Shown: piece by piece, positions 5,614 through 64,000 of the stretch
Layout of the letters: the number at the start of each line of letters is the position of its first letter
Numbering within the stretch: the first letter of the stretch is position 1
IMG/VR virus record: IMGVR_UViG_3300024262_000018
Coordinates: 32,001-96,000 of that record
Strand: one strand, 5' to 3'
Source of the DNA: a virus
Length of the DNA stretch: 64,000 bases
Notes under the pieces: model-generated
What the model was told of the DNA's origin: nothing
The model's input: only the letters and a program-made list of their open reading frames with translations
Database searches by the model: none
Made by a program: the position numbers and the translations under genes

Positions 5614-6416
5614 GTCCCAGGATTTAATTGAGGATACGGACTATCCTCATACCTATCCTTCCAAGAAAAAGGTTCATTTCTTAATTCTCTCCAATAAAAG
5701 CCTTCTCCGACTTTACCGGATTTGTTATAAGTATCATACCCCATCAAATATCTCTGTTGCATCCTCTTATCTCTGTCTCTTCCATAAGTTTCTCCAGAAA
5801 CCTCATCCCAATTAAAAACGCGTTCTTCCATAGGGAGGTCTAAGTTCCCCCACGGCCCCTGAATTCCCTTTGCAACTTTAATTACAACATTATCAATCTT
5901 ATCTTTTCCATCTAATAGTAGAGAGAGAAGAGACGCAATATATTCTATTTTTTTATTTGATCTATAAATCCAATCTAGAGCTATTCTATAATTCGATATA
6001 CAATTCATTATCTCATACGAAAAATGTAATATATCTTTGTCAAAAACTTTTCTAAAGATAGAGCAGATATCGTGTTTCTTTATAAATTCCTTATAATCTT
6101 GACAATAATCCAATAATTTTATAAGATCCCAAATGCCGTATAATGCATCTATGGCGATGTTCAAGTTTTTATCGTTGATAACTACGCTATTCCCCATCGA
6201 CACGGGTTTATTAAAGTTTAATAAGTTTGCTACTTCTAGGAGTAGATGTCTAATTATTTTAGTATTAGAGATATGATCTTTTTTTAATAGATATATCTTG
6301 CTGGTTATCTTAGACTTGAATTTCCGATTGCCAATAGAAAAAGAGCACTCGGTGTCGCCCATAACAGCAATACCATACTTATCAAGTTCTTTTATTAGCA
6401 ATTCCCTATTATTCAT
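5604..6416 (-). CDS. hypothetical protein
   Basis: 270 aa ORF overlapping neighbours. Confidence 0.6.
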   Translation of the reverse strand: MNNRELLIKELDKYGIAVMGDTECSFSIGNRKFKSKITSKIYLLKKDHISNTKIIRHLLLEVANLLNFNKPVSMGNSVVINDKNLNIAIDALYGIWDLIKLLDYCQDYKEFIKKHDICSIFRKVFDKDILHFSYEIMNCISNYRIALDWIYRSNKKIEYIASLLSLLLDGKDKIDNVVIKVAKGIQGPWGNLDLPMEERVFNWDEVSGETYGRDRDKRMQQRYLMGYDTYNKSGKVGEGFYWRELRNEPFSWKDRYEDSPYPQLNPGTWR

Positions 6417-9142: not shown

Positions 9143-11050
9143 CTATCTTCTTCTACTATTGGGCCAGGAATTGAGTCTTTCTAGATTTTGGGATACTTGT
9201 TGTCCTGTGCCATAGCCTATAGGCCCGCTCATAGAGTTCCACATTCTACTATTAACGCTACCCGCTGTTCCCATATCTATAACTTGACCATTCGGTAGTC
9301 TTTTAACAGCAAAAGAAATCGAGTTATAACAGGCACCGGCGAGACTGTCAACTACATCGTCCGTCGAGACTTCTCCTTCCCTTTTCGGGAAAACAGAATA
9401 ACCAGAAGGAGGCATAAACTTTCTTTGAAGATTAAACATCTCATCTCTCAATAACGCATAAGGAGGGATTTTTAATCTCCCAGAAATGACCAAATTATAT
9501 AATTCATCATATATAGTCATTTTATATTTTTTGCTATAATGAGTGCATTTTGCGGGAATACCAAATTTTCTCAGTTTATTAATGCTGGCTGTACTATTCC
9601 AGATATCATAAGTAATAACCCCAAAATAGAATTTCTTGCGTAACCCAATAACATAATCATCAATAACCTCAGTGTTAATGGGCTGATCCGGCGTAGGATG
9701 CCAATGTTTAATATGGTCAACTACAATGTTAAAATCATTTTTAGATGTTTTTTTATTAAAAAACACTTCTCTATGAACTACAACCAAGGAGTAGTTGTGG
9801 CTGGAAGTCGCGGGGTCTAAATGGGCAAAATAAACGACTCCCGCTTTCCCCATTTTCTCTATCTTGTGGCCAGGCTTAAAACAGTCTTCCACACAATGCC
9901 TTGGGAAGAAGTTCTCTCCACCCATTCCAGAGAATTCAGCCCCGAATTCCATCATAAACTGAACCTCTGTCATATGGCTATTAGTCTCTCTTAAAGATTC
10001 CTCTGTTAGTTCTGGAACAACAGCCCATGTCGGCAATCTACAGGCTAAACGAGATTCTACTTTTGGGGCTTCTTTATAAATTTCATAAAAAATACCGTCC
10101 TCACCTCTGGGAGAAGAGATACTAATAATCTTACTATCATATACTATTCTAGTTTTAGGCTCACCATCATCACCCAAGACTTCAACGCCATTTGCGTCTA
10201 AAACCTTTACAACTCTTTTATATGTGTTAAGAGAGGGAGACATGCTCGTATAAATACGCTCGCCAGATGAAGATCCGCCAGTTTTTTTATAAGATGCAAC
10301 TTCGTCAAGAATCAAAACAAATACACCCTTACCCAAAAGTGAGTCAGAGTTGCTATGCCCAACCTCTATCAATATAGATCCCTTTTTAGGCATTAATTTT
10401 CGTTCGAGTAAATCTTTATTTTCTATTCTATCACTTTGAGTCAAAAGATATATTTTAGATGTTTCCAAACCTTCTGGCATCATCTTATCTTTAAAATATC
10501 TGCTTCCTAATATTCTATCTTTAATTTCTTTAAATGCTGTATCCGCCTGGTCTTTTGCTGTTGCGACTGTTAGAATATTAATTGTAGCGGCAGAAGAAAT
10601 ACCATAAACGGCATATGGATCACCACCGGGACATTCTAACAACTTCATTGCTTCATATGTCGCAATTAGAGACCCGACGAAGTCTTTTCCAGCTCGTCTT
10701 CCCCAAACCAGAACAAGTTCTCTAAAAATATTGTTATCATAATATTTATTTAATGCATCCCCTCGATCACCATCAAATAAACCGTGATCCTTACACAGTT
10801 TAATCTCTTCTTTTGTTAATGATATATGTTCATTGCCAACAGACCCTCTATAGAATATCTTTAAAATTATTTCTTGAAATGGTCGTAATATTATACCTCG
10901 CTCTAATAAATTAAGATAATCAGGGCTATTGCAAAAAGTTATTATATCTGGAATATATTTTTTTTTACCTATATCGGTAGTCTCATTTTCCATGTCACTT
11001 TTCATCTGAGAGATGATATCAGAGATATTTGTATATTTTTTTCTCGGCAT
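9143..11050 (-). CDS. terL: terminase large subunit
   Basis: LRPFQ Q-motif, Walker A WGRRAGKD, Walker B VLILDEVA, coupling motif SISSP, RNase H-like FAHLDPA...TDDVVDSLAGA. Confidence 0.92.
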   Translation of the reverse strand: MPRKKYTNISDIISQMKSDMENETTDIGKKKYIPDIITFCNSPDYLNLLERGIILRPFQEIILKIFYRGSVGNEHISLTKEEIKLCKDHGLFDGDRGDALNKYYDNNIFRELVLVWGRRAGKDFVGSLIATYEAMKLLECPGGDPYAVYGISSAATINILTVATAKDQADTAFKEIKDRILGSRYFKDKMMPEGLETSKIYLLTQSDRIENKDLLERKLMPKKGSILIEVGHSNSDSLLGKGVFVLILDEVASYKKTGGSSSGERIYTSMSPSLNTYKRVVKVLDANGVEVLGDDGEPKTRIVYDSKIISISSPRGEDGIFYEIYKEAPKVESRLACRLPTWAVVPELTEESLRETNSHMTEVQFMMEFGAEFSGMGGENFFPRHCVEDCFKPGHKIEKMGKAGVVYFAHLDPATSSHNYSLVVVHREVFFNKKTSKNDFNIVVDHIKHWHPTPDQPINTEVIDDYVIGLRKKFYFGVITYDIWNSTASINKLRKFGIPAKCTHYSKKYKMTIYDELYNLVISGRLKIPPYALLRDEMFNLQRKFMPPSGYSVFPKREGEVSTDDVVDSLAGACYNSISFAVKRLPNGQVIDMGTAGSVNSRMWNSMSGPIGYGTGQQVSQNLERLNSWPNSRRR

Positions 11051-15284: not shown

Positions 15285-15313
15285 TTGCTTTTTTTAAGCA
15301 TCATGACTATAAT
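15285..15313 (+). promoter_or_regulatory. sigma70-type promoter of tRNA array 1
   Basis: TTGCTT-17 bp-TATAAT with AT-rich UP region; same hexamers as 60957..60985. Confidence 0.75.
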
Positions 15314-15318
15314 GTTAT

Positions 15319-15392
15319 AGCGGTTGGGTGAAACAGATAATCATGCGAGCCTCATAAGTTCGAGATAGCAGGTGCAACTCCTGTAGCCGCAA
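15319..15392 (+). tRNA. tRNA-Met(CAT), possibly initiator
   Basis: cloverleaf, loop CTCATAA, 1:72 mismatch; CCA not encoded. Confidence 0.85.
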
Positions 15393-15416
15393 TTTTACAA
15401 GGTTTGGAAATTTGCC

Positions 15417-15482
15417 ATGAATAATAACATTATATTCTTCGACGCCCCAGCAAATGCCCAACCTGATCCCGCGCAGATATAA
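15417..15482 (+). CDS. putative attenuator leader peptide MNNNIIFFDAPANAQPDPAQI
   Basis: 21 aa ORF; 11 of residues 9-20 are D/A/P/Q, matching downstream tRNAs; overlaps alternative hairpins. Confidence 0.7.
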   Translation: MNNNIIFFDAPANAQPDPAQI

Positions 15483-15537
15483 TCTATATCTTGCGGGATT
15501 CATTTCTTTTCTTTCCTTAAAATGTTTTCCCGCGAGA
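15465..15537 (+). promoter_or_regulatory. mutually exclusive hairpins (putative attenuator)
   Basis: 15465-15481 pairs with 15485-15500; alternatively 15489-15498 pairs with 15528-15537 (10 bp). Confidence 0.65.
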
Positions 15538-15578
15538 ATTCCCTGCGTTGTTTGAAAAGTTAATAAGAGTTTATATTA

Positions 15579-19486: not shown

Positions 19487-19490
19487 ATAT

Positions 19491-19573
19491 AGAGTGGTAG
19501 AATAATTGGTAATTCACTGGACTTTGAATCCAGGTCCGAAAGGATAATGAAGGTTCAAATCCTTCCCACTCTA
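19491..19573 (+). tRNA. tRNA-Gln(TTG) with long variable arm
   Basis: AGAGTGG/CCACTCT, CTGGA-CTTTGAA-TCCAG, V-arm GTCCGAAAGGAT. Confidence 0.85.
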
Positions 19574-19586
19574 TTATAATATTTAT

Positions 19587-19669
19587 AGAGCGATAGAGTA
19601 ATTGGCAACTCACCGGACTCTGACTCCGGACTCGTAAGGGTATTGAAGGTTCAAATCCTTCTCGCTCTG
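19587..19669 (+). tRNA. tRNA-Gln(CTG) with long variable arm
   Basis: AGAGCGA/TCGCTCT, CCGGA-CTCTGAC-TCCGG, V-arm ACTCGTAAGGGT. Confidence 0.85.
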
Positions 19670-19756
19670 TTAAACAAATATTTAGTTTCTTGAAGGAAAT
19701 AGCGTAAAGAGTTAGTATGTATTATCACGCTACGTTATTTGCTAAGGAATTATAAA

Positions 19757-38480: not shown

Positions 38481-38552
38481 GCTCATATCCGCTAACTGGT
38501 AAGCGAAAAGACTCTAAATTTTTTAATCGAGGTTCGAGTCCTCGTATGGGCG
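38481..38552 (+). tRNA. amber suppressor tRNA (anticodon CTA)
   Basis: GCTCATA/TATGGGC, D-stem CGCT/AGCG, AAAGA-CTCTAAA-TTTTT, CGAGG-TTCGAGT-CCTCG, G73. Confidence 0.85.
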
Positions 38553-60948: not shown

Positions 60949-60956
60949 TTTTGTTG

Positions 60957-60985
60957 TTGCTTTTTTACGTTCTCCTGCCTATAAT
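60957..60985 (+). promoter_or_regulatory. sigma70-type promoter of tRNA array 2
   Basis: TTGCTT-17 bp-TATAAT. Confidence 0.75.
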
Positions 60986-61014
60986 CTTGTGAACAGCGAT
61001 AAAGGCTAAGTTTT

Positions 61015-61122
61015 ATGAATAACATTCAAAACAACTCAACTCAGAACAACGGGACTCTCGTCCTGTCGTCCCTTTATTGTTTATCTGGGCACTCTTTGTC
61101 CCTCGGCTATTATAGTCTATAA
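61015..61122 (+). CDS. putative attenuator leader peptide MNNIQNNSTQNNGTLVLSSLYCLSGHSLSLGYYSL
   Basis: 16 of last 21 residues are L/S/Y; all six Leu codons used; downstream tRNAs are Tyr, Leu x3, Ser x3. Confidence 0.75.
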   Translation: MNNIQNNSTQNNGTLVLSSLYCLSGHSLSLGYYSL

Positions 61123-61179
61123 GACTAGCTTGAGCCGGACACAAAACTCTCTTTTTATTCCCGGCTCGGGTCATTTTTT
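61102..61179 (+). terminator. attenuator: antiterminator/terminator pair
   Basis: 61102-61109 pairs with 61126-61134; alternatively 61128-61138 pairs with 61161-61171 (11 bp) followed by CATTTTTT. Confidence 0.7.
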
Positions 61180-61201
61180 GAAAAATTAATATGAGTTCTA
61201 T

Positions 61202-61285
61202 GGGTTGGTTGAGCAACTGGACGCTCTGGCGACTGTAACTCGTCCGTCCGAAAGGACATTGCAGGTTCGAGTCCTGTCCAACCCG
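61202..61285 (+). tRNA. tRNA-Tyr(GTA)
   Basis: GGGTTGG/CCAACCC, loop CTGTAAC, V-arm. Confidence 0.9.
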
Positions 61286-61292
61286 GTGATAT

Positions 61293-61382
61293 ACCCTTGT
61301 AGCAGAATTGGCTTATGCGATTGACTTAAAATCAATTGAGGAGTATAAACTCCTCGTGTGGGTTCGACCCCCGCCAAGGGTA
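61293..61382 (+). tRNA. tRNA-Leu(TAA)
   Basis: ACCCTTG/CAAGGGT, ATTGA-CTTAAAA-TCAAT, long V-arm, A73. Confidence 0.9.
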
Positions 61383-61388
61383 TTACTT

Positions 61389-61476
61389 GCTCCTGTGGCG
61401 TAATTAGCAGCCGCGCTAGGTTTAGACCCTAGTGGGAATATCAAATCCCGTGCTGGTGCAACTCCAGTCAGGAGTA
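61389..61476 (+). tRNA. tRNA-Leu(TAG)
   Basis: GCTCCTG/CAGGAGT, CTAGG-TTTAGAC-CCTAG. Confidence 0.9.
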
Positions 61477-61483
61477 CTTATCT

Positions 61484-61569
61484 GCCCCTTTGGTGTAATT
61501 GGAAGCCACGATAGTTTCAAGAACTATTGCACTTTAACGTGCGTCTCGGTTCGAGTCCGGGAAGGGGCA
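61484..61569 (+). tRNA. tRNA-Leu(CAA)
   Basis: GCCCCTT/AAGGGGC, ATAGT-TTCAAGA-ACTAT. Confidence 0.9.
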
Positions 61570-61613
61570 TTTATATATTTTTCGCGCAAAATTATTTTCA
61601 AAGTGTAAAACAG

Positions 61614-61698
61614 GGAAAGTAAAGTTCATAGGTTGAGCCACCGTCTGCTAAATGGTTGGAGTGAGAAATCGCTTGTGTTTCGATTACACTGCTTTCCG
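61614..61698 (+). tRNA. tRNA-Ser(GCT)
   Basis: GGAAAGT/GCTTTCC, loop CTGCTAA, V-arm, G73. Confidence 0.85.
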
Positions 61699-61714
61699 TT
61701 AATTAGGAAATAAA

Positions 61715-62296
61715 ATGAAAAAAGAACATTTTGATTATGGTTCCTATAAGAAATATATAAACCGCCAAACTAAGCTAGCCTCTCAAACAGTTTTCAAAAC
61801 TCTTAGAGATAAGAAGTTTATCGAAGAAAGAGTTAAAGATCTCCTATCTCTTTATCCTAATTATAAAAATGTTTTATGCTTAGGATCTAGACATCCAGTA
61901 GAAGTGGAAGCGTTTTTAACTGCTGGTTGTTCTGCTATAGGTATTGATCTTTTTGAAACGCTACCACATATTATAAAATGCGATATGGCGAAGATGTATG
62001 AAAACTCAATACTTCGAAAAAGAAAACCATTTGATATCATATATATGAGCCATTCTTTAGAACATTGTTTAAATATCGAAGGGCTATTACAAGGAATTCA
62101 ATGGAGTAATGCGACAGTCTTATATATAAGAGTTCCTATAAAGAATAAACCTGAAAAATGGGATTGCACATTATTAGAATTTATGCTTCCAGATGGTAAT
62201 CCCAATACGATAGAAGAATTATTTACCGGATGGACTCTTAAGGAGTTTACTCCGCTAAGTAATGAAAAGATTTTTATTTTAGAAAAGAGGAAATAA
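61715..62296 (+). CDS. class I SAM-dependent methyltransferase
   Basis: VLCLGSR..GIDL..CD..FDIIYMSHSLEH. Confidence 0.8.
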   Translation: MKKEHFDYGSYKKYINRQTKLASQTVFKTLRDKKFIEERVKDLLSLYPNYKNVLCLGSRHPVEVEAFLTAGCSAIGIDLFETLPHIIKCDMAKMYENSILRKRKPFDIIYMSHSLEHCLNIEGLLQGIQWSNATVLYIRVPIKNKPEKWDCTLLEFMLPDGNPNTIEELFTGWTLKEFTPLSNEKIFILEKRK

Positions 62297-62297
62297 A

Positions 62298-62609
62298 ATG
62301 TCAGCATATTTTGTAGATTTAGATGGAACATTGTTTGAGTTTGGCACAGATATCTTCTTGCCAGGGACTAAAGAGTTTTTAGAGTTTATTAAAGAAAACA
62401 ATCATCAACTTATACTAACAACTAGAAGGGGCGATTGGAGTGGGGTTTTTTCAAAAGAAAGCACTTTAAAAGCCCTTAAAGATCATGGTATAGAATATCA
62501 TAGTATTATTTTTGGAGTTGATAGTCCTAGAATTGTTGTGAATGACGACGGATGCTCAGCTATTAATGTTATAACTAATATTGGTATGGAGAAAAAAGAT
62601 TATGAATGA
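62298..62609 (+). CDS. small HAD-superfamily phosphatase
   Basis: FVDLDGTL, LTTRR, VNDD. Confidence 0.8.
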   Translation: MSAYFVDLDGTLFEFGTDIFLPGTKEFLEFIKENNHQLILTTRRGDWSGVFSKESTLKALKDHGIEYHSIIFGVDSPRIVVNDDGCSAINVITNIGMEKKDYE

Positions 62610-62817
62610 GATTAAAATTGAATTTAAATCAAAGAGATATGGAGATACATTAGATGTCGGATATGGATATTCCAATAGCGAGGTTTTTGAAGGAGAGTTA
62701 AAAGAAGTTATTCGCAGGCTAGTTGACATAGACAAAAAATGTTATAAATATAATAAAGTAAATGTTTCTGTTGACCTTGTGGACGGGTATATAGAATTTA
62801 TTGGAATTAAAAATTAA
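62602..62817 (+). CDS. hypothetical protein
   Basis: likely start MNEIK. Confidence 0.5.
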   Translation: MNEIKIEFKSKRYGDTLDVGYGYSNSEVFEGELKEVIRRLVDIDKKCYKYNKVNVSVDLVDGYIEFIGIKN

Positions 62818-62825
62818 TAATAACT

Positions 62826-62911
62826 GGATGAACTGGACATCGGTGAGTCCACTTGTTTTGAAAACAAGCAGGCCCGAAAAGGTCTTGGGGGTTCGAATCC
62901 CTCTTCATCCG
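62826..62911 (+). tRNA. tRNA-Ser(TGA)
   Basis: GGATGAA/TTCATCC, CTTGT-TTTGAAA-ACAAG, V-arm, G73. Confidence 0.9.
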
Positions 62912-62915
62912 GTAT

Positions 62916-63002
62916 GGAAGAACTGGGTATTTAGCGAACCCACTCGTCTCGAAAACGAGCAAGCCTGAAAGGGTTTTGAAAGTGCGAATCTTTCTTCTTC
63001 CG
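62916..63002 (+). tRNA. tRNA-Ser(CGA)
   Basis: GGAAGAA/TTCTTCC, CTCGT-CTCGAAA-ACGAG, V-arm, G73. Confidence 0.9.
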
Positions 63003-63087
63003 TTTAATTAATAAAATATAAAAATATTGAGTTGTGGCGTTTAAAAAGTTATAAAGAGGTATAAAACTTTGATGTAGGAGAAAAACT

Positions 63088-64000
63088 ATGACACCGCTTT
63101 TTGATCAATTAGAACCACGATTACTGTTGGATGGCACTTTTCCCGGCGACCTCAACCTTGATGGTTATGTCAATATGGAAGATCGTACTGAGGTTCATTC
63201 TGCTGCGGACTACATCGCGTGGAAGCGTAATATCGGCAAGACCGAGACAATCTCTCTGCTGGAAACGGTTCCCGGTGAGATACTTGTACAGGGGACGAAT
63301 CATGCCGATACGATTTTTATAACGAACATTGGTGGTCGTGTTCAGGTTAATGGACAAAACGCGGCAGGGGACGGAACCGTTGTTATCCTCGGCGGGAGTG
63401 GTGACGATATCATCTCGGTAGTCGGTCGTGATGCGATTGTAGATGCGGGTTCGGGTCGGGACATCGTTTGGTGTACTGACCCAGATACGGTTACAGATGC
63501 CGAAATCGTGCATGTATGCCCGAATTGGCTTCTTGACGGCACACCACTTCCTGAGATTGCTGGAGTAGAGTCAGGACAGAGTACTGATCTTTCGCATATA
63601 CCGCTGTTTCCGCATGCTCCAGTGTACACTGATGTACAGCAAGGCATGTTGAATACTGGTTGGTTATTAGCGGCCTGTTCCTCTATTACGAAACAGCATC
63701 CCACGTGGTTAAGAGACAACCTTGTCGCATTCGGCGACAGTACCTACGGTGTAGCTTTTGCAGACGAGATTGTCCGGGTTGATGCCTCGTTCTGGATTTA
63801 CCAGTCTGCTGTGGTTGAGGATAAAGGTCCACTGTGGCCCGTTGTTGTTGAAAAAGCCTATGCGAGTAGTTTGGTTGGGGGGTATGATGCTTTAGAAAAT
63901 TGTAAACCAGAAGATGCTATCGAGAAATTACTCGGCTGTAATTCCAGTCTTGTTGCGGGCGATTTCTTTGATTCAGCAGTAACTGCTTTGAAAGCAAAAA
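63088..64000 (+). CDS. LEPRxLL / dockerin-like / calpain(C2)-like protein, truncated by window edge
   Basis: AGGAG SD; FDQLEPRLLL, GDLNLDGYVNMED, GGSGDDII, DVQQGMLNTGWLLAA, LWPVVVEKAYA; open to end; not in ORF track. Confidence 0.8.
   Translation, partial: MTPLFDQLEPRLLLDGTFPGDLNLDGYVNMEDRTEVHSAADYIAWKRNIGKTETISLLETVPGEILVQGTNHADTIFITNIGGRVQVNGQNAAGDGTVVILGGSGDDIISVVGRDAIVDAGSGRDIVWCTDPDTVTDAEIVHVCPNWLLDGTPLPEIAGVESGQSTDLSHIPLFPHAPVYTDVQQGMLNTGWLLAACSSITKQHPTWLRDNLVAFGDSTYGVAFADEIVRVDASFWIYQSAVVEDKGPLWPVVVEKAYASSLVGGYDALENCKPEDAIEKLLGCNSSLVAGDFFDSAVTALKAK

Follow-up and report, generated by a model that had tools for sequence, protein, structure and literature searches.

A candidate leader-peptide attenuator with codons matching the downstream tRNA genes in a probable very-large-phage fragment

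The window analyzed here is a 64,000-nucleotide (nt) stretch, bases 32001–96000 of the 113,959-bp virus record IMGVR_UViG_3300024262_000018, and our subject is a short open reading frame (ORF) at 61015–61122, which stands between a promoter and a block of tRNA genes and is the candidate leader of a transcription attenuator. All positions are in window numbering unless prefixed with G000:C1 or with an L-number. The record has a G+C content of about 34% and carries at least 30 tRNA genes. The region ahead of the block is organized as listed below, with RNA structures predicted by folding.

60957–60985, plus strand: promoter P2, sigma-70-type, TTGCTT-17-TATAAT, found by exact pattern search; an A/T-rich stretch precedes it
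61001–61005, plus strand: weak Shine-Dalgarno-like AAAGG, read from the sequence, 9–10 nt 5' of the ATG
61015–61122, plus strand: leader ORF of 35 codons and a TAA stop, from the ORF list; its start lies 29 nt past the –10 hexamer
61057–61119, plus strand: regulatory codon run, 16/21 residues Leu, Ser, or Tyr and 19/21 in {Y,L,S,C,G}
61097–61108, plus strand: region 2, putative antiterminator 5' strand within the ORF (codons 28–32), pairing with 61133–61141 in local and nascent folds
61113–61127, plus strand: small predicted hairpin with the stop codon at its top
61128–61141, plus strand: region 3, the predicted shared strand, serving either as terminator 5' arm (61128–61138) or as antiterminator partner (61133–61141)
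61161–61171, plus strand: region 4, predicted terminator 3' arm, 11 pairs, –18.1 kcal/mol
61174–61179, plus strand: U tract (T6), read from the sequence, after a 2-nt spacer behind the stem
61178–61191, plus strand: head motif TTGAAAAATTAATA, 10 nt 5' of tRNA-Tyr

The original prediction, made from the letters of the window, had placed the promoter and the 35-residue ORF here, and both are present at these positions. The exact TTGCTT-17-TATAAT pattern occurs twice in the window and also twice in the whole record, at 60957 and 15285; both copies head a tRNA block, and the two align across about 45 nt. P2 was missed by a generic promoter scan, since its –35 hexamer shares only 3/6 positions with TTGACA. 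The same exact pattern did not recur in 32 related records, save for one unrelated match. No Pfam family was found for the leader ORF, and Rfam (E ≤ 10) gave only chance-level matches for the region 60950–61200.

The block that follows contains these tRNA genes and one tRNA-like element.

61202–61285, plus strand: tRNA-Tyr(GTA), class II; ARAGORN, and Rfam at 38.4 bits
61292–61383, plus strand: tRNA-Leu(TAA); ARAGORN
61389–61477, plus strand: tRNA-Leu(TAG); ARAGORN
61483–61570, plus strand: tRNA-Leu(CAA); ARAGORN
61614–61698, plus strand: candidate tRNA-Ser, a tRNA-like element of atypical form whose anticodon is GCT and whose variable arm is long; hand-drawn class II cloverleaf and BLAST similarity
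62825–62912, plus strand: tRNA-Ser(TGA); ARAGORN
62915–63003, plus strand: tRNA-Ser(CGA); ARAGORN

The set had been described as exactly Tyr, Leu(TAA/TAG/CAA), and Ser(GCT/TGA/CGA). The ARAGORN assignments bear out Tyr, the three Leu, Ser(TGA), and Ser(CGA), but the word "exactly" stems from the window ending within the block: past its edge, up to the next promoter, tRNA-Ser(AGA), tRNA-Cys(GCA), and tRNA-Gly(TCC) are also present. The GCT element was missed by both ARAGORN and Rfam; it can nevertheless be drawn as a class II cloverleaf, and shows 77–80% identity to unannotated stretches that lie within tRNA clusters in about 30 T4-like phages of Acinetobacter.

A recount of the leader upheld the composition first noticed, with 16 of the last 21 residues being Leu, Ser, or Tyr. 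Its seven Leu codons are of all six kinds, CTC being used twice, and its seven Ser codons are of five kinds, AGC being absent; the three Tyr codons are all TAT, and there are also one Cys and three Gly. The variety of Leu and Ser codons exceeds the expectation from genome usage (P = 0.007; P = 0.04 for the leader at 15417–15482, described below). For the amino-acid set of the complete block, the best leader window scores 18/19 (P = 6e-9). A count of 16/21 in Leu, Ser, and Tyr is attained at only six loci when all six genome frames are considered, three of these loci being Ser-dominated low-complexity (poly-Ser) runs. The 63-nt regulatory run is 71% pyrimidine, which favors Leu and Ser in any frame and, together with the weak Shine-Dalgarno sequence, would suit a chance ORF in a pyrimidine-rich spacer between an ordinary promoter and an ordinary hairpin; but the other two frames of the run are not rich in Leu, Ser, and Tyr, and one of them contains a stop.

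The genome holds two further units of this kind, named P1 and P3 after their promoters.

15285–15578, plus strand: sister unit P1, with the promoter hexamers of P2, a tRNA(CAT), a 21-codon leader, alternative predicted hairpins, and the head motif
G000:C1:98941–98969: promoter of unit P3, TTGCAT-17-TATAAT, outside the window; the unit spans G000:C1:98941–99140, i.e. 66941–67140 in window numbering
G000:C1:99007–99081: P3 leader, 24 codons, with a strong predicted terminator after it

The P1 leader (15417–15482) is rich in Asp, Ala, Pro, and Gln, and tRNA-Pro, tRNA-Ala, tRNA-Asp, and three tRNA-Gln lie downstream of it; only two loci in the six frames of the genome reach 11/12 in these four residues, one of them being this ORF. 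The P3 block consists of His, Trp, two Asn, Lys, Arg, Val, two Glu, Ile, two further Arg, Thr, and Met. When each leader is scored against each block, the resulting 3 × 3 table is diagonal. The P1 leader has 11/20 residues in the set of its own block, {P,A,D,Q} (P = 3e-5), and 0/20 in that of block 2; the P2 leader has 21/34 in {Y,L,S,C,G} (P = 1.4e-4); and the P3 leader has 18/23 in its own set, with all ten block amino acids present (P = 0.004). Of the six off-diagonal cells in which block 1 or block 2 takes part, five hold values of 0–2. In each of the three leaders, enrichment is confined to the amino-acid set of its own block, a pattern that a chance ORF does not account for.

A wider control covered 221 regions upstream of tRNA genes in this phage and about twenty related records. 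Complete ATG-initiated ORFs of 10–60 codons were considered, each region being scored by the best ORF enrichment for the amino acids carried by tRNAs encoded in the next 4 kb, with mismatched disjoint sets as the null. A score of 8 or more was reached in three regions, where 0.11 were expected (Poisson P = 2e-4), and the tail of the null arose wholly from one poly-Lys ORF. No general excess was found when each tRNA in all 221 regions was treated as having its own leader, with 12 regions at p ≤ 0.05 against 11 expected; this would also be the outcome for chance ORFs. Leaders sit only at block heads. The excess at the top of the distribution, the diagonal table, and the independent recurrence of analogous leaders in at least six relatives, one of them out of sample, make a chance origin of the ORF very improbable; judged on sequence, the match between leader and tRNAs is not fortuitous. 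The concordance with tRNA arrays in related genomes that had been proposed as a check was found, against controls.

The leaders in the relatives, whose terminases are 50–60% identical to that of this phage, are listed below with the tRNA genes that follow them.

L084:1895–2005: leader, 15/15 in {L,S,C}; then Leu × 3, Ser, Cys, Ser, Ser
L115:1199–1276, minus strand: leader, 13/13 in {Q,S}, with all six Ser codons; then Gln × 3 and, 2.7 kb on, Ser × 2
L121:3048–3113: leader, 9/10 in {I,V,H,W}; then Trp × 2, Val, His, Ile × 2, Val, Met
L121:465–512: second leader of this record, Leu-rich; then Leu × 7
L103, within 6080–6211, minus strand: leader, 11/12; then Ile, Cys, Thr, Asn, Pro, His, Met
L086:4001–4087, minus strand: leader, Leu/Cys-rich; then Cys, Leu
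L101:2670–2747, minus strand: leader, 13/13 in {C,L,S,Y}; then Cys, Leu, Tyr, Leu × 3, Ser × 2

The L101 leader has the design of leader 61015 and was located through the 14-nt head motif and not through its composition, which makes it an out-of-sample match. The L121:3048 leader is preceded by a TTGACT-17-TAGAGT promoter and followed by a textbook terminator. A weak case was seen in L081 (7/12, P = 0.014), where the ATG overlaps a TATAAT. A window rich in Lys and Phe in L109 was dismissed as chance, being an alternative frame of the 3' end of an HNH-like gene.

The C-terminal 21 residues of leader 61015 are hydrophobic to neutral and of about the length of a membrane span, as would befit a small functional peptide, e.g. 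a membrane peptide, unrelated to tRNA control. The leaders of the other blocks are chemically unrelated to it, being rich in Asp, Ala, Pro, and Gln, in Gln and Ser, or in Ile, Val, His, and Trp, and share only the match to their own tRNAs; with no family match for the ORF either, such a function is extremely unlikely to explain it.

The large terminase subunit, encoded on the record at 9143–11050 (minus strand), has many metagenomic relatives at 50–65% identity. Since several of these sit on contigs of 330–550 kb, four of which are rated 98–100% complete, the record is probably a fragment of a very large phage. INPHARED holds no DNA resembling the record except single tRNAs. A metagenome scan with the flanking protease returned an HtrA-like bacterial locus only, which was rejected as unrelated and without tRNAs.

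Folding of the leader RNA confirmed the stem 61128–61138/61161–61171 of the original prediction, with 11 pairs, three of them G-U, followed by UCA and U6. The competing pairing proposed for the ORF 3' end, 61102–61109/61126–61134, was likewise seen, in the minimum-energy fold of the nascent RNA; a stronger register exists in 61097–61108/61133–61141, stacked on the stop-codon hairpin 61113–61127 (–17.4 kcal/mol). Over the same 85 nt, the antiterminator state is at –17.4 kcal/mol versus –23.3 kcal/mol for the terminator state, and the minimum-energy structure of full-length folds contains the terminator. The stop-codon hairpin is also present in the P1 leader and in leaders of the relatives, and predicted terminators of canonical form follow the L121, L103, and P3 leaders.

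To follow the effect of ribosome position, nascent RNAs ending at the terminator loop, before the 3' arm, were folded for five leaders under a 28-nt ribosome mask. In all five, the terminator 5' arm pairs with the ORF 3' end when the ribosome is absent or on early regulatory codons, and this pairing disappears once the mask covers the last codons or the stop. For leader 61015, the simulated antiterminator is kept with the mask at codons 1–26 and is gone at codons 27–30, at the last codon, and at the stop. In addition, the end of the ORF is a near-copy of the terminator 3' arm in the P1, L084, L121, L103, and L101 leaders, the hallmark of two strands in competition for a single partner.

The diagonal table, the control over 221 regions, the leaders of the relatives, the codon variety, and the nascent folds together support the geometry first proposed, that of attenuation by a codon-matched leader. 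We consider it likely that a ribosome-mediated transcription attenuator precedes this phage tRNA block, with leader codons corresponding to the tRNA genes that follow; production of a tRNA block would then probably set in when ribosomes are slow on its codons. Transcription would begin at the promoter 60957–60985, and a ribosome would translate the 35-codon leader as RNA polymerase proceeds. A stall early in the Leu/Ser/Tyr(/Cys) run, at about codons 15–24, would leave 61097–61108 free to pair with 61133–61141, sequestering the terminator 5' arm; the polymerase would then read into tRNA-Tyr, the three tRNA-Leu, and the Ser tRNAs, and later into tRNA-Ser(AGA), tRNA-Cys, and tRNA-Gly. A ribosome that reaches the stop codon would instead cover or melt the antiterminator, allowing the 61128–61138/61161–61171 hairpin to form and transcription to end at the U tract. 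In the apparent absence of a 1:2 pairing, read-through is expected from a leader that is not translated. Four elements of this scheme are inferred: that the leader is translated, that transcripts end at the U tract, and the sign and trigger of the response.

As nearly every synonymous Leu and Ser codon is sampled, the leader could report a shortage of any one isoacceptor, which would make the tRNA supply self-correcting. A more general proposal, which we advance tentatively and rate at slightly under even chances, is that large phages carry one decoding-quality sensor per tRNA block, in the form of a "roster" ORF with codons for nearly every isoacceptor, such that the loss of a single one opens the whole block. 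Such a loss could stem from host anticodon nucleases, from tRNA degradation during infection, or from starvation.

Several points weigh against attenuation. IMG/VR, scanned with the terminase and with each of the two flanking proteins as single queries, yielded no close relative from which covariation of the stems could be read. The Shine-Dalgarno sequence of the leader is weak in its AAAGG core and 9–10-nt spacing, neighboring genes having clearer ones (AGGA/GAGG, 5–8 nt from the start); those of the P3 (AGGTGA) and L084 (GGAGAA) leaders are stronger. The attenuation model gives no role to the Asn-rich N-terminal half of the leader. The predicted terminator is atypical, with an unusually long loop of 22 nt and three G-U pairs; it was not listed by a consensus terminator scan because its loop exceeds 8 nt, and its U tract overlaps the conserved 14-nt head motif, which could itself be a second promoter bypassing the attenuator. 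The hairpin of the P1 sister unit is without a clean U tract. Codons 27–35, which make up nine of the 21 codons in the run, coincide with region 2 or the stop hairpin, and about the last eight regulatory codons lie in the antiterminator strand; stalls there should not promote read-through but should favor termination or occlude the terminator only in part.

The remaining point concerns the behavior of the complete RNA. The check proposed at the outset, folding with and without ribosome constraint, gave a divided answer: the nascent folds switch with ribosome position, but the equilibrium ribosome-mask model showed no switch for leader 61015 or for L121. With the full terminator made, the equilibrium fold of leader 61015 keeps a terminator probability of about 0.86 at any stall position, and its switch therefore rests on a kinetic argument. 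Only L115 switches cleanly at equilibrium, its terminator probability falling from about 1.0 to less than 0.1 with the ribosome on the Gln/Ser codons.

These properties bear on a different coupling, in which the leader would be translated and matched to the tRNAs but would act through a feed-forward gate, Rho-dependent polarity, RNA processing, or RNA stability. In the feed-forward variant, a ribosome at the end of the ORF would occlude the terminator 5' arm, and the tRNAs would be made only while decoding works. With the ribosome placed at the stop codon, direct occlusion brings the terminator probability down to 0.54 in leader 61015 and to 0.04 in L084, and the atypical terminator of leader 61015, the imperfect U tract of P1, and the overlap of late regulatory codons with region 2 all fit such a coupling. 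It leaves aside, however, that the recurrent copy of the terminator 3' arm at the ORF end is what a competing antiterminator requires, that the nascent RNAs behave in folding as in classical attenuation, and that L115 switches even at equilibrium, and we regard it as unlikely.

The head motif raises another question. In the 382 kb of this phage and its relatives, the pattern TTG[AG][AC]AANT[AGT]AATA has 17 matches, 10 of which sit 4–19 nt before a tRNA. This genome has it at 15552–15565 and 61178–61191 only; it also occurs in L084, L097, L101, L103, L106, L115, and L121, often with TCT or TTT just 5' of it, and is found inside arrays with no leader ahead. It could be an antitermination site similar to rrn boxA, a phage promoter, or a processing signal. 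The form found in relatives, (T)CTTTGACAA, presumably resembles the boxA of Escherichia coli rrn operons, a likeness that we take as a lead only. In rrn operons, boxA is a site downstream of the promoter that is bound by NusB/NusE. A literature search on the boxA sequence was uninformative.

Were the motif at 61178–61191 a phage-specific promoter for the tRNAs, the promoter, ORF, and hairpin could form a small separate transcription unit, with the ORF composition serving as a tRNA probe or sink. The ten sites at 4–19 nt before a first tRNA and those within leaderless arrays fit this arrangement. On the other hand, it provides no reason for leaders to list the amino acids of their own block and leaves the ORF ends that mimic the terminator arm unexplained, while the motif may equally be read as an rrn boxA-like site; a separate unit of this kind is quite improbable.

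Attenuation by multivalent leaders is well known from enterobacteria, where thr (Thr and Ile) and ilvGMEDA (Ile, Leu, and Val) are controlled in this way; trpL, hisL, leuL, and pheL, and pheM of pheST, are further leaders. The phage arrangement resembles the attenuators of amino-acid operons and of pheST in having a promoter-proximal short ORF rich in cognate codons and in that several amino acids would be sensed by one leader. It also shares with amino-acid operons the opposition, predicted here from folding, between an antiterminator that includes the ORF 3' end and an intrinsic terminator; in those operons the ribosome position decides between the two, and the phage leader would behave likewise. 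In contrast to these systems, the targets in the phage are tRNA genes and not biosynthetic or synthetase genes, and because the controlled genes are tRNA genes, their product would feed back directly on the decoding of the leader. The phage leaders also differ in listing up to ten amino acids, with many synonymous codons in place of single-codon runs, and leader 61015 has no evident 1:2 pairing of the "superattenuation" type.

T-box riboswitches, in which the tRNA is bound directly and no translation takes part, act on synthetase and amino-acid genes; they are similar in that the charging or supply of a specific tRNA sets the choice between terminator and antiterminator in a 5' leader. Rfam gave no match over 60950–61200 to the T-box, a family defined by its specifier loop, T-box sequence, and stem I architecture.

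The original prediction knew of no leader-peptide attenuation of phage tRNA arrays, and our literature searches, which combined leader peptides or attenuation with phage and bacterial tRNA genes or arrays, found no account of leader-peptide control either. A comparable array is the trn operon of Anabaena sp. PCC 7120, a supernumerary, horizontally spread long tRNA array that is silent until translation is impaired (PMC8421152). That operon is an inducible tRNA array as well, but its control lies at the promoter, where direct repeats span the –10 box and the start site and the repressor TrcR acts, and no leader peptide or attenuation is mentioned (PMC8421152, PMC10272220). Two recent studies, whose subject is what phage tRNAs do, tie these tRNAs to escape from tRNA-cleaving host defenses, which gives a rationale for replacing particular isoacceptors during infection (PMC10264068, PMC11555353).

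If the proposed attenuation holds, the circuit would need no protein regulator and would be the first in which tRNA genes are known to be under leader-peptide attenuation. Classical attenuation would thereby gain a new target class, the tRNA genes, with a direct feedback loop closed, and each block of phage tRNAs would be supplied on demand. The reasons for which phages carry tRNA genes, and the timing of these genes, have been argued over for decades. The combination of roster ORF, switchable terminator, and head motif would also provide a sequence-only marker of tRNA transcription units in uncultured giant phages, which could predict which tRNAs matter, and the leader might be used as a compact synthetic sensor of tRNA availability.

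Three leaders of two phages (61015, 15417, and L121:3048) start with Met-Asn-Asn, and their N-terminal halves are Asn-rich; efficient initiation and a spacer for ribosome loading are two possibilities for such N termini. In the P1 unit, the tRNA(CAT) at 15319–15392 (Rfam 38.1 bits, missed by ARAGORN) begins about 6 nt past the –10 hexamer; its A1/A72 mismatch is an initiator-like feature. As it lies 5' of the P1 leader, it would escape attenuation.

The block behind leader 61015 also contains protein-coding ORFs.

61715–62296, plus strand: methyltransferase-like ORF
62298–62609, plus strand: HAD-like ORF
ending at 62817, plus strand: small ORF

A further ORF inside the block, at 63088–64000, encodes a calpain-type cysteine protease domain and lies in a stretch with a G+C content of about 40–50%, above that of the rest.

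Elsewhere on the record, some tRNAs are unusually long for their isotype, namely two of 85 nt with Gln anticodons (19490–19670) and a tRNA-Asn of 95 nt (G000:C1:101319–101413). A suppressor-type tRNA (CTA) lies at 38481–38552, and CTA and TTA suppressor tRNAs are found in the relative G001 (L088, L089). The block behind leader 61015 (61201–63003 and G000:C1:96252–96343) gathers class II tRNAs, i.e. Tyr, three Leu, and three Ser assigned by ARAGORN, or four Ser with the GCT candidate. The relatives sort their tRNAs likewise, with Leu, Ser, Tyr, and Cys standing together in L084, L101, and L086.

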